This document shows, piece after piece, positions 9,357 through 48,386 of a DNA stretch of 64,000 nucleotides. Numbering within the stretch: the first letter of the stretch is position 1; each line of letters starts with the position of its first letter. The notes under the pieces are model-generated. The model saw only the letters and a list, made by a program, of their open reading frames with translations, searched no databases and was not told the origin of the DNA. Both the position numbers and the translations under genes were made by a program. Source of the stretch: Eledone cirrhosa. Its lineage: Eukaryota. The stretch spans positions 232,748,001 to 232,812,000 of the forward strand of contig OZ024740.1 of NCBI GenBank assembly GCA_964016885.1. Direction: 5' to 3'.

Positions 9357-9414
9357 ATACCTGATGATATCACCTGATTCATATGGAACTCGGTCATTGA
9401 AATGATCATGGTAT
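9357..9414 (+). ncRNA. Type-I hammerhead motif with G at position 17 (probably inactive)
   Basis: ATAC-CTGATGA(9361-67)-TAT.C.ACC...GGT.C.ATT-GAAA(9399-9402)-TGATCA-T-G-GTAT, then AATAAA. Stem III palindrome ATGATCAT. Confidence 0.65.
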
Positions 9415-9489
9415 AATAAAGCTTTCAAGGATTTACACCAGTCCAGCCTCCTGTTACTTCATTTATATATATATATATATATATATATA

Positions 9490-9850
9490 TAGGGTGTCTC
9501 AGAAAATGTATACACTTAAACAACATCCTAATATATATATATGAGTATATATTTTTTATGAACACCCTGATACATACATACACACACACACACAAACACA
9601 CACAAACACACACACACACTTAAACATCCTAATATATATATGAGTATATATTTTTTATGAACACCCTGATACATACATACACACACACACACAAACACAC
9701 ACACACAAACACACACACACACACACACACACACACACACACACACACACACACACACACACACACACACACACACACACACACACACACACACACACAC
9801 ACACACACACACACACACACACACACACACACACACACACACACACACAC
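9490..9850. repeat. Tiny Tc1/mariner-like MITE remnant, partly duplicated, followed by a long (CA)n
   Basis: AGGGTGTCTCAGAAAATGTATACACT ... AGTATATATTTTTTATGAACACCCTG inverted ends. The 3' part is repeated at about 9618-9670. Confidence 0.55.
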
Positions 9851-11084
9851 ATACACATATAAGCGTACGTTTTTTTTTTTTTCTGGATCAATATGACACT
9901 TGTCACAATACCGAAACCATGTTTTCTTGTTTTTCGTTTCTTTTTACCTTAACCATTCTACTACTCACGCGGAATGTTTGAACAACACTAAACATCTCCT
10001 TTACGCAAAATGTTGACCCCAAACAAAGTCTAACAACAAAGACAGTTGTAGTTCATCAATTATCCCTGTGGTTTATAGCAAGCAGTATTTTCTTTTTCGA
10101 AGATGCGGAATCCGGAGGTGTGGTATGTGTTACTGATTCGTGTTGCAGCGAACACGGTTTCAATGTCACTTACCTTTCATGTTATGTTAATAATTAATCA
10201 ATTAATTCAAACTAGTCACAGGATGAGGCATTTCGCTTCGGAGTTAGTCTATTAAATTGACCTTGGTATTGAACTAGATATTTATTTCATAGGTCCCAGA
10301 ATAAGGCAAGGATAATTGACCACGGTGGGATTTGAATTCACAAGGAGAAATGCTGTAACTAGATATCACAAATCACTTTGACCGAAGTTCTAACAATTCA
10401 GCCATACAATCAACAACAACAACAACAGCAACAACAGCAATACTTATTTATTTACCACTAGGCAATAGTTCGAGGAAGAATGCAAGGACAGATTTCAAAA
10501 TATTAACGGTAGTAAGCAATAGGAAAGGAAATGGTAACAATCTGTATTATCTATTATCAGACCAAATTCTTTCGTCATTGTTATTTTAATTTGATACATT
10601 TGCACACACATACAAACAGGCAGACATACTCACACCTACACACATATGCACAGGCAGACACACGCACACATACACAAACATAAACACACGCACACATACT
10701 TTCAGTCGTCGAAGCTCAGCATATATTTTAGTTAGATACCTATTTTATCGATCTTTATCAATACCATTTTGAAAAAAGGGACGTAACTCGATATTTATAA
10801 AACAATATATAATATATATATTATATACATACATAAATACATCTTTCTCTCTCTGTATATATATATATATATATATATATATATATATATATATATATAT
10901 ATATATATATATATATATGTCGTATATTTATATATATATATATGTGTGTGTGTGTGTGTGTATATAAATATATATATATATATATATTTAAAGGTTAAAC
11001 AAGGTTCAATGAATAAATCAAAGAATGAGTTTTACAATAGATTAGAAGCACTCAACAAATTTGGTTTTCCGGCGTTATTAATAT

Positions 11085-11308
11085 TAATTCAAAATATTAA
11101 CAAAAATAGAACTACATAGTAGAAGGTTAAGATCCAGTCATTGTACCATGACTGGATCTTAACCATCTACTATGTCAGGGTATGTCATCCATCATCTTAT
11201 TTCATCTGATGAGGACGTACTGTTGAAGTTAGCTCAGTACCTCTGAAATATGTATAATAAAATATACTTGATCACAAGAATATCTATTTTGTTAATATTT
11301 TGAATTAA
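11085..11308 (+). mobile_element. Fold-back element with an internal ~60-bp hairpin (11114-11175) and a hammerhead
   Basis: Outer inverted repeat TAATTCAAAATATTAACAAAA(A)TAGA / TCTATTTTGTTAATATTTTGAATTA, followed by (TA)n. Confidence 0.75.
11198..11264 (+). ncRNA. Minimal type-I hammerhead ribozyme motif
   Basis: TATTTCAT-CTGATGA(11206-12)-GGA.C.GTACTG..CAGTAC.C.TCT-GAAA(11245-48)-TATGTA-TA^ATAAAATA. Confidence 0.75.
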
Positions 11309-45959: not shown

Positions 45960-46003
45960 ACTTTCTAGTGTTTCACACACACGTGTGTGAAACACTAGAA
46001 AGT
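45960..46003. repeat. Perfect hairpin with 21-bp arms
   Basis: ACTTTCTAGTGTTTCACACAC-ac-GTGTGTGAAACACTAGAAAGT. Confidence 0.9.
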
Positions 46004-47365
46004 GTGTGTCTGTGTCTGTGTGTGTCTGGGTGTATATGTCTGTGTGACAATGAATGACATGATTAACTGAATTCTTCCTAATTTGAGAGAGTCAGGTACA
46101 AAGCAGTACGATATTTCATTCAGACGCATTATTTCGCCAACCTCAATTTGTGAAACCGCTAGGTTATGTGGCCTAACCTCTGGAACAGATTGTGCTTTTT
46201 CCATAACAACATTAATTCAACCATGAAAGTATTGTTAATTTCAAGAAAGTTCTAAATATTGACATTTAGAGTCTAATAAATAAATTTACTCAAAAACTGA
46301 ATCATATTTCAGACACTGCATCTACTAGTCTCTTTATAGACTAGTATTGCAGATAATCATATTGTAATTCCCTTTAATACTTTTAATTAAATTTTTCTTT
46401 ATTCTCAACTAAACTTTGAATTATCATCCGTGGTGCATTTATTTATATTTTTTCCTCTAAATATAAACAGCTGGAGGAACGTTTATCATAATTTCGGCAT
46501 TCGCTTTTCTCGTCTTGTATATACTTACCCGTAATTCAACACTCATTTAAAAAAAATTAAAAGTTGCTGTAAAACTATCGTTATAGTTATAAACTTGAAC
46601 TAAAGATTTGCCAAGGGAGGGCACTCTACTCTATCCCCACACACACACCTGAACTACCTCAACTATGTGTTTCTATTTATTTTAATTATTTTCAATAACG
46701 TTTCGTATATCAATTTTAAGTTGCAAGACGAGCTGTAAATGAAGAGACTGCATTCTTCCATGCACCAACATTATATCTATTATATATTTATTTACTGTAA
46801 TAGGGCCGTGAATCAAGGAGTTTATTATTTATACACAAGCTTTGAATTTTTTGAACACATTAAACCGAAATAAGTGGATCATGTGTAAGAATATACAAGG
46901 CAAGATAAGCGAATGCATAAAAAGCATTAAATATGCAGAGAATGCAAAGAATATATGCATGGTTTCAGCTGCATAACATTTATATATGTATATTTAACAT
47001 ATTTAACATTTAACAATATACAATATATATATATATATATATGTGTGTGTATGTGTGTGAGTGTGAGTGTGTGTGTGTGTGTGTGTGTGTGTGTGTGTGT
47101 GTGTGTATAATTTATATATATAAATAAGTGTATTTATATGTGCATATATATATATATATATACATATATATTGTGAAGGCACGTGGCTGAGTGGTAAGAG
47201 AATTTGATTCACAATCGTGAGGTTGTAACAATATATCCAATTATATTACACGGCTCGGAAACATTCCCTTCTTTGAGCTATTTAATTGTAAAAGACTATT
47301 TTCAGTTTATAACACATAAATAAATGGAAACTATATTTATAAAACCATATTCTATTATATATATA

Positions 47366-47426
47366 TATTCTATTATATATATTTCAATGGTACCAAAACT
47401 TTGGTACACCCTCATCAGATAAAATA
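47366..47426 (-). ncRNA. Minimal type-I hammerhead (left arm)
   Basis: Minus strand TATTTTAT-CTGATGA-GGG.T.GTACCAA agtt TTGGTAC.C.ATT-GAAA-TATATA-TA^ATAGAATA. Confidence 0.72.
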
Positions 47427-48325
47427 CAAAGTTTGTTTTATAAATGTTGACATAACCAAGAAAAGATACCTTAACGGTTCAAGCTTTTCTTGGATAGTGA
47501 AGGGAAAAGAGAAGAAAAGTCAGATATTTCAAATTATTAAGATGAGTATGCAAATGAGGTTGAAGTATAGGGCTGAAAAAACGTCATTTTTAGATGCTAT
47601 GCAGAATTTAAATAACTAGGATATATGTATGTATAAGTAGGAAGAAGAAGAAAAGAAAGAAGAGCTTGTATTTACGTTAATTTAAAAGGAATTAAGAATT
47701 TGCGGGAATGGTGGAATATGTTTCCAGAATTTAAATTTATTTAGCTATATTATGAGTTATAATATTGTATATATAATCAATTAGATTATATAAAGTATTA
47801 TGGTTGTAAGTAGATTTTATCTTATCACATTACAACAGGTTGTAAGTATATAAATATCTATATAGATTAATAATTGAGCATGTAAAAGTATTATAGAAAT
47901 AGAAATAAGTTACAATTATTAGTTGCTTACATTTCTCATATGAATTACGAAGGATATTGATTCTGCATTCAAGTTGTAAGAGGAGAACAATTTGTAGATT
48001 CAAATATGTTGTTCCAACATTGACAATTATTTCAGAATATTGTTAATTTAGCGAAGTTATATAGATTATCATAGATATTATATTATAATATAATGTTTAT
48101 GTTTCCTCGATTGAAAAGGAAAAGATAACTCCAATCTTGTTTGGTAACCGTTAAATTTGATGAATGATTTACTCAGAAAATATATAGAAAAAATTATATA
48201 TTATTTTGTGTGAGATTAATTTTAATTATATATTATTCGAAAGATGTGTGAAAGTTTGAAAAACAAAGCTTGAACCTTTAAGGTATCTTTTCTTGGTTAT
48301 GTCAACATTTATAAAACAAACTTTG

Positions 48326-48386
48326 TATTTTATCTGATGAGGGCGTACCAAAGTGTTGGTACCCTTGAAATATATATAATAGAATA
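48326..48386 (+). ncRNA. Minimal type-I hammerhead (right arm)
   Basis: TATTTTAT-CTGATGA(48334-40)-GGG.C.GTACCAA agtg TTGGTAC.C.CTT-GAAA(48367-70)-TATATA-TA^ATAGAATA. Confidence 0.82.

Follow-up and report, generated by a model that had tools for sequence, protein, structure and literature searches.

We examined the predicted hammerhead ribozymes in a 64-kb window of the Eledone cirrhosa genome (contig OZ024740.1; G000:C1:232748001-232812000; "the window" is this whole stretch), which is microsatellite-rich and has a GC content of 32%, in a host genome of 3.0 Gb. In our reading, to which we give a probability of about 0.4 as a whole, a C·C mismatch (sometimes C·U) at the fourth pair of stem II is the hallmark of a predicted 3' hammerhead in one branch of the Hydra clade of Penelope-like elements (PLEs), was likely inherited once and kept by selection, and likely acts as a base-specific weak joint that would keep the ribozyme inactive until its folding is assisted by a second copy and by the element protein. 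A sequence-only reading had listed eight C·C cases in the window, and each was present when the sequence was read at its place, as were a C·U variant (copy 38862) and a U·C variant (copy 47418), both on the minus strand. Copies and families are named here by window position (Table 1).

Conservation of pair 4 in stem II

Window copies were collected by taking every CUGANGA site and following stem II pairing outward from the core. Every genuine copy is a type I hammerhead whose helix III is an 8-nt palindrome, an assignment based on the core and on covarying stems I, II and III, with self-cleavage predicted. A fold of the cDNA strand rather than of the RNA is not favoured, given the G·U wobbles of the sense strand and a C·C that becomes G·G on the other strand. 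We grouped stem II sequences of the AT-palindrome and ACGATCGT types into 27 clusters: 22 have C·C at pair 4, two have C·U, one has U·C and two have G-C, and none has U·U, A·C, G·A or A·A there. Pairs 3, 5, 6, 8 and 9 alternate among G-C, C-G, A-U and U-A in the same clusters, helix III pairs vary as well, and pair 1 is A-U in 9, G·U in 5, G-C in 4, U·U in 4, C·A in 3 and something else in 2. A sister of family 38262 has a wholly different upper helix and has retained the C·C. The earlier observation that the mismatch stays in place while its flanking helices change on both sides is thus borne out. Since C·C persists in sequence of 32% GC, where C-to-T change is common, the identity of the bases at pair 4, and not merely their failure to pair, is kept.

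An alignment of 24 rows gave the same picture. Two-sided changes occur in 9 of 9 stem II pairs and in 5 stem I pairs (14 of 17 pairs), whereas 23 of 24 rows lack a base pair at pair 4. The two-sided changes fill 87 cells vs. 29.5 after shuffling, a test that ignores kinship, and controls slid out of register were 33-47% paired vs. 86% in the true register. A covariance model built from 24 family representatives was used to scan the window and returned 12 matches altogether, including nine window copies at E<2e-6; copy 38262 escapes it because of its 116-nt stem II insert.

The preference for C·C extends to the whole genome. We searched with a pattern made of the core, 16-44 nt and the GAAA-palindrome, in which pair 4 was either left blind or constrained, and used the reversed pattern search as control. 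Blind to pair 4, the pattern had 108,534 genome matches (vs. 189 in the control); with C on both sides it had 74,916 (vs. 3), and with purine·pyrimidine 2,487 (vs. 41). R·Y therefore accounts for no more than 2.3% of copies, and its occurrence resembles dispersed mutation: many of these matches are artefacts of deletions or of a second core-like word in the loop, and the remainder are scattered single copies with G·C, A·C, G·U or A·U. The base at 10.4 was C in 96 of the first 100 blind matches listed, and most of those that were not C·C belonged to the C·U family group. An amplified G-C subfamily was considered, as a G-C query returned about half of its loci with G-C. This idea was weakened because the best matches reproduce the allele of the query, 11 G-C copies share no private allele, and G·C and A·C are about equally common in the first 100 R·Y matches listed.

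We also compared pair 4 with its neighbors by means of a descriptor that treats nine stem II positions alike, applied to 96 evenly spaced 10-kb stretches (960 kb, four of the stretches being window neighbors); the counts hold for hammerheads whose helix III is an 8-nt palindrome and whose stem II has at least 21 nt, and the clusters were drawn at an 80% threshold. Of 54 copies, 47 had Y·Y at pair 4, as did 16 of 22 stem II clusters. The corresponding figures were 0-3 copies and 0-1 clusters at positions 2, 3 and 5-9, and 6 copies and 5 clusters, often U·U, at position 1. Pair 4 is therefore Y·Y far more often than any other stem II position (47 copies vs. 0-6). An earlier descriptor had 73 matches vs. 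none in reversed sequence, and 71 of them in register 0 were divided among C·C (25), C·U (9), U·C (3) and paired (34). Position 4 is paired in the short-stem hammerhead families of the host genome and likewise in a long-stem group with other helix III sequences. Both cytosines were unchanged in four low-depth contig runs, which are not informative on conservation across species.

Carrier elements and their phylogeny

Walking upstream from the hammerheads, we found a GIY-YIG endonuclease 0.9-1.9 kb before them in family 31765 and its sister, in families 48334, 33031 and 38862, and in the AGGCAT group. Family 31765 is linked to open reading frame (ORF) P0001 and family 48334 to a Hydra endonuclease; for the family of copies 33031 and 33127, an endonuclease remnant lies 1.9 kb upstream of one member in L044. 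The linked ORFs, inspected by eye (P0001 and the L280 ORF), have a C-terminal endonuclease with a CxCX5C linker, CxxC and CxH, and no CCHH. A GIY-YIG endonuclease at the C-terminus with this linker, CxxC and CxH defines the Hydra clade as described in PMC8557442. Because the ORFs match the motifs given in section 11 of that source, we take the carriers to be Hydra-clade PLEs. Copies of the C·C type also show insertion features of the Hydra type, namely insertion into (TA)n, 5' truncation and inverted arms. Pfam returned nothing for four Hydra proteins. RWK and DKT motifs and a divergent RT4 are further marks of Hydra-clade PLEs. RW/DKT motifs are present in an intact family of the host genome (L241); the retrieved ORFs of the C·C families are 5'-truncated at the RWK/DKT region and share the reverse transcriptase (RT) motifs of the published alignment. 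The element ORF had 42 protein matches, including two Argonauta hians proteins. The carriers are thus homologous retroelement families of a single Hydra-clade lineage, and the hammerheads are not "sequence-unrelated", as the sequence-only reading had put it. The hypothesis that the C·C type is the "missing" hammerhead of Naiad PLEs was set aside, as every linked ORF has a C-terminal and not an N-terminal endonuclease.

A tree of 45 proteins was computed after short and long-branch rows had been excluded (those of the 31765 sister and of 33031 were too short). A single change accounts for its nine C·C/C·U rows, as it does in 94% of 200 bootstrap trees. Eight of these rows form a clade supported at 100/99, which the 31765 family joins at 76/26, and the Argonauta proteins branch beside the C·C/C·U rows. 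As one change suffices, the motif is best read as inherited once and not as convergent. The protein paths among the C·C/C·U rows span about 1.1 substitutions per site, and it seems likely from this tree that the families are one branch with a single origin and deep conservation. A paired U3-A8 Hydra family of the host genome and a bulged tandem family are placed outside or beside the C·C group. Host elements with another endonuclease type carry the published hammerhead type known as min-HHR, including its inserted nucleotide.

Several other element families were seen. The intact Hydra-clade family (L241, G000:C1:437198965-437204058, and L237-L266) lies in 3.53-kb tandem arrays and encodes about 716 aa from the first Met, most of the 63 copies scored being free of stops. 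In its hammerhead, the core is U3-A8, helix III forms a long hairpin, and stem II is bulged by one base at pair 3-4. Family 38262 (window 38048-38464; L313-L337) is very young, with copies 98-100% alike and 4,877 exact 30-mer matches, a stem II of 101-126 nt, C·A at pair 1 and no ORF found; a DNA search for it was empty and the pattern search retrieves copies. Family 9361 (L299-L300, G000:C4:42297622-42303708) is young, its copies being 99% alike, and consists of a 2.8-kb unit that occurs in tandem pairs; as no PLE ORF was found in it, it is a candidate non-autonomous PLE. Tandem units of about 310 bp on the minus strand of L034 each carry a short-stem hammerhead of another kind than the C·C type and resemble a retrozyme-like satellite. 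Viral contigs yielded no Hydra proteins, and 18 of at least 240 pattern loci in them passed a loose stem II filter, none of them resembling a full hammerhead.

Possible roles of the mismatch

The mismatch is costly. Changing C10.4 to G would gain a computed 3.1-6.9 kcal/mol in six window hairpins. With the break, no more than 2-3 core-proximal pairs remain, and beside the core there is often U·U, C·A or G·U. Helix III is computed to be unstable as a hairpin (+4.7 kcal/mol) and to form an intermolecular duplex at -2.2 to -10.5 kcal/mol. A helix III confined to dimers, two or three weak core-proximal pairs, a costly mismatch and a clamping helix above it could together make a slow or gated ribozyme. 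Some 100-130 nt separate the 3' hammerhead from the element end, so reverse transcription must usually pass through the ribozyme. Fast constitutive cutting would split the priming end from the rest of the RNA, and a ribozyme in the read-through path should therefore be slow or gated. In a random sample, 38 of 59 copies of seven families reach past the whole core (two references were dropped from this count for (TA)n contamination). Cleavage in the dimer, attenuation by the mismatch and contact with the protein are the steps that we infer.

Some 5' ends and inversion points coincide with the helix III palindrome (L114 7613-7617, L024 673-711, L225 and L118), and many other copies start 70-90 nt upstream of the core. 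The palindrome is a possible hot spot for stalling or template switching of reverse transcription.

Contacts between stems I and II lie at about the level of pair 4 in natural hammerhead structures. The sequence-only reading had proposed a docking or a metal- or protein-binding element; in the docking model, the C·C would be a stem II receptor for a tertiary contact from stem I that speeds cleavage at low Mg2+. The placement of this contact in PMC3088659 is close to pair 4, strict base identity fits a specific contact, and two helices in contact through their shape would not require a conserved base on the partner side. However, stem I, at 4-9 bp, is a simple helix with covarying pairs, and within 12 nt no conserved unpaired partner or internal loop common to the families was found, pseudoknots with distant flanks lying outside this search. 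PLE hammerheads are moreover reported in PMC4209133 to be slow and without recognizable loop-loop contacts. We therefore consider docking unlikely. Because base identity is strict and stem I offers no conserved unpaired partner, the element protein is the likelier partner. The C·C might even be a binding mark by which the Hydra RT-endonuclease recognizes RNAs, both those of its own element and non-autonomous ones, and activates the hammerhead they carry, which would make a protein-gated subtype with about 100,000 copies in one genome that is invisible to current Rfam models; we regard this extension as speculative and probably wrong.

The mismatch could also be a generic hinge, any break after three pairs serving to bend a long stem II away from stem I, with C·C a historical choice. 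Several Hydra hammerheads with a 3-bp stem II and a tetraloop (L125, L141, L159 and L171) are consistent with this, as are the intact Hydra family bulged at the same height and the C·U family that has been amplified to a large share of copies. A hinge of any kind does not explain why U·U, A·C, G·A and A·A are all missing from pair 4 in the 27 clusters, and other Hydra hammerheads have unbroken stems of 10-11 bp. This explanation seems to us rather improbable. Strict identity might equally suit a metal- or pH-sensing site, as C·C pairs can be protonated and a C+·C pair or an ion pocket could form. Yet a large young family uses C·U and no data point to such regulation, which makes a sensing role very remote.

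Finally, the mismatch may have no function and may be an ancestral feature passed down in a weakly selected ribozyme. One origin is enough for this, G-C variants exist and may be mobile, and cleavage by a PLE hammerhead was dispensable for insertion in vitro in the experiments of PMC11167929. But the two cytosines have stayed fixed while neighboring pairs changed repeatedly on both sides and the proteins diverged by about 1.1 substitutions per site, and a single transversion would gain 3-7 kcal/mol, yet R·Y makes up no more than 2.3% of copies. We think it doubtful that a neutral relic would show this pattern.

Several observations weigh against a selected, attenuating mismatch inherited by one branch. 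About 10 of the 59 sampled copies end 14 nt or less upstream of the cut, partly at the palindrome, and for a few of them a cleaved template could account. Elsewhere in the Hydra clade, hammerheads have a long stem II with no break, so that Hydra elements in general can transpose without one, and the intact tandem-arrayed family of the host genome has a single bulge in place of C·C. G-C and A·C versions of pair 4 exist, some in both arms of one insertion, and such variant RNAs can probably be copied. No linked ORF was found for families 9361, 38262 and 11206. Support for monophyly is weak (Shimodaira-Hasegawa-like approximate likelihood ratio test, 26), and a single origin in turn means that the families are not independent trials.

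Window copies and known hammerheads

In seven of the ten window copies the core and helix III are intact, and the first four pairs of stem I include no more than one mismatch; the others are decayed at H17 (9361), at 16.1 (31127) or in stem II (47418). Copies 33031 and 33127 are not independent of each other, nor are 47418 and 48334, each pair being the inverted arms of one insertion. The U·C of copy 47418 arose from a C-to-T change at a CpG, with G·A at pair 3, whereas C·U is the normal state of young family 38862, whose copies are 96-99% alike. Copy 38262 has an inverted arm at 38091-38256. Young relatives of copy 9361 are intact and belong to the 2.8-kb unit. Stem I and the 3' flank are common to copies 11206, 31127, 33031, 38862 and 48334. 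Site 255, previously counted as a C·U variant, is not a hammerhead: it has three pairs only, without an upper helix, helix III palindrome or stem I, lies outside the 12 covariance-model matches and has no relative among the matches listed. A site at 37994 was rejected as well, being antisense to the tail of family 38262 and lacking C3 and helix III.

Table 1. Hammerhead copies and one rejected site, in window coordinates
Feature	Position	Strand	Pair 4	Description
Copy 31765	31757..31818	+	C·C 31775/31795	Intact type I hammerhead; 5-bp stem I, CUGAUGA core; stem II of 3 bp, C·C and upper helix; helix III an 8-nt palindrome; cut predicted after 31810; within 3' fragment 31686-31893 of Hydra-clade PLE family
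Copy 33031	32975..33039	-	C·C 33021/32998	Left arm, inverted insertion 32927-33283
Copy 33127	33119..33183	+	C·C 33137/33160	Right arm, inverted insertion 32927-33283
Copy 48334	48326..48386	+	C·C 48344/48363	Right arm 48265-48488 of inverted insertion
Copy 47418	47366..47426	-	U·C 47408/47389	Decayed; family 48334; left arm 47317-47969
Copy 38862	38800..38870	-	C·U 38852/38823	Element 38696-38931
Copy 38262	38254..38404	+	C·C 38272/38381	C·A at pair 1; 116-nt stem II
Copy 11206	11198..11264	+	C·C 11216/11241	One stem I mismatch
Copy 9361	9353..9418	+	C·C 9371/9395	Decayed; U·U at pair 1; G at position 17
Copy 31127	31076..31135	-	C·C 31117/31099	Decayed; C not U at 16.1; U·U in stem II
Site 255	240..287	+		Rejected; core-like words without stems I and III

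The window also holds an extra hammerhead at 58252-58339 (plus strand) with a 10-nt palindromic helix III and a long stem II that is paired at position 4. Further long inverted repeats (31302-31434, 35310-35390, 37290-37740, 59414-59498 and 60686-60823) are typical of inverted 5'-truncated PLE insertions, and a core-like word lies at the inversion point of a long inverted repeat at 31367. Remnants judged by eye to resemble mariner-type transposase and non-LTR retrotransposon ORF ends lie at 43381-44236, 40347-40709 and 2386-2724. Tandem repeats include a 45/90/135-bp minisatellite array (27543-29135) and a 68-bp four-copy repeat (34400-34672).

Rfam gave no window match at its gathering score and no hammerhead family at E<=10 for two 101-nt test stretches, although the catalytic core is common to the Rfam hammerhead families and the C·C type; for the whole window at E<=10, microsatellite matches dominate among the matches listed. 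A C·C of this kind was also not found in the published consensus material examined. Fig. S3 of PMC4209133, read by eye, has C·C at pair 4 in none of 56 rows (one row has U·U), and File S2 of PMC8557442 has it in none of 26, stem II being unbroken there. None of 43 metagenome Hydra loci with a descriptor match had it (76 loci scanned), their stem II being likewise unbroken at pair 4, and the covariance model agrees. In the portions drawn on here, PMC3088659, PMC6765202, PMC10085705, PMC7229834 and PMC6466107 mention at most U·U at pair 1, and a 2026 octopus repeat annotation (PMC13282606) contains neither "hammerhead" nor "ribozyme". A full-text literature search found no description of the C·C, with Lünse et al. 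2017 and the Rfam seeds lying outside it, so that a prior description is possible.

The PLE min-HHRs described by Cervera and de la Peña (2014, PMC4209133) resemble the hammerheads studied here in being type I, with a CUGANGA/GAAA/UH core, a location in the pseudo-long terminal repeat (pLTR), a short palindromic helix III predicted to need dimers, many solo copies and a long helix II. They differ in having a 9/10.1 nucleotide insertion that the C·C hammerheads lack, a conserved G10.1-C11.1 where the latter have A-U, G·U, U·U or C·A, and an unbroken helix II instead of one broken at pair 4. The Hydra-clade hammerheads of Craig et al. (2021, PMC8557442, File S2) share the clade, insertion into (TA)n, a frequent U·U at pair 1 and, in many rows, the lack of the 9/10.1 insertion. 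The published ones and the metagenome loci mostly have a looped helix III and short 3' untranslated regions (UTRs), whereas the C·C type has a perfect 8-nt palindrome and 3' UTRs of 1-1.9 kb. Canonical fast hammerheads rely on a loop-loop or pseudoknot contact between stems I and II, for which no conserved counterpart was found in C·C hammerheads. Naiad PLEs have an "HHR_core" without canonical stems and an N-terminal endonuclease, unlike the C-terminal one of the C·C carriers. Non-LTR retrozymes are non-coding tandem repeats of about 300 bp, whereas C·C copies are dispersed truncations of coding elements.

A functional precedent is the Anolis Poseidon PAc hammerhead (Frangieh et al. 2024, PMC11167929). 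It is likewise located in a pLTR and its template is copied uncut. It cuts only with the PLE protein, and the uncut RNA is the main substrate. It belongs to a different PLE clade, and protein assistance is shown there but only putative for the C·C type. The role of PLE hammerheads is open in the field, given their slow cutting and the one that needs its element protein. A two-base feature that is held constant in families that diverged deeply, and that has natural G-C, C·U, bulged and unbroken counterparts within one clade, offers a clean handle on whether these ribozymes are tuned down or gated by protein. It points to a very large hammerhead population that Rfam does not detect here, and it is a simple marker for an under-annotated Hydra-clade radiation. 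As had been proposed, the mismatch does mark a hammerhead subtype. Judged from sequence comparison, the C·C type is a variant with a putative function that is strongly conserved and confined to one lineage, and both the ribozyme and the transposon clade to which it belongs are already known.

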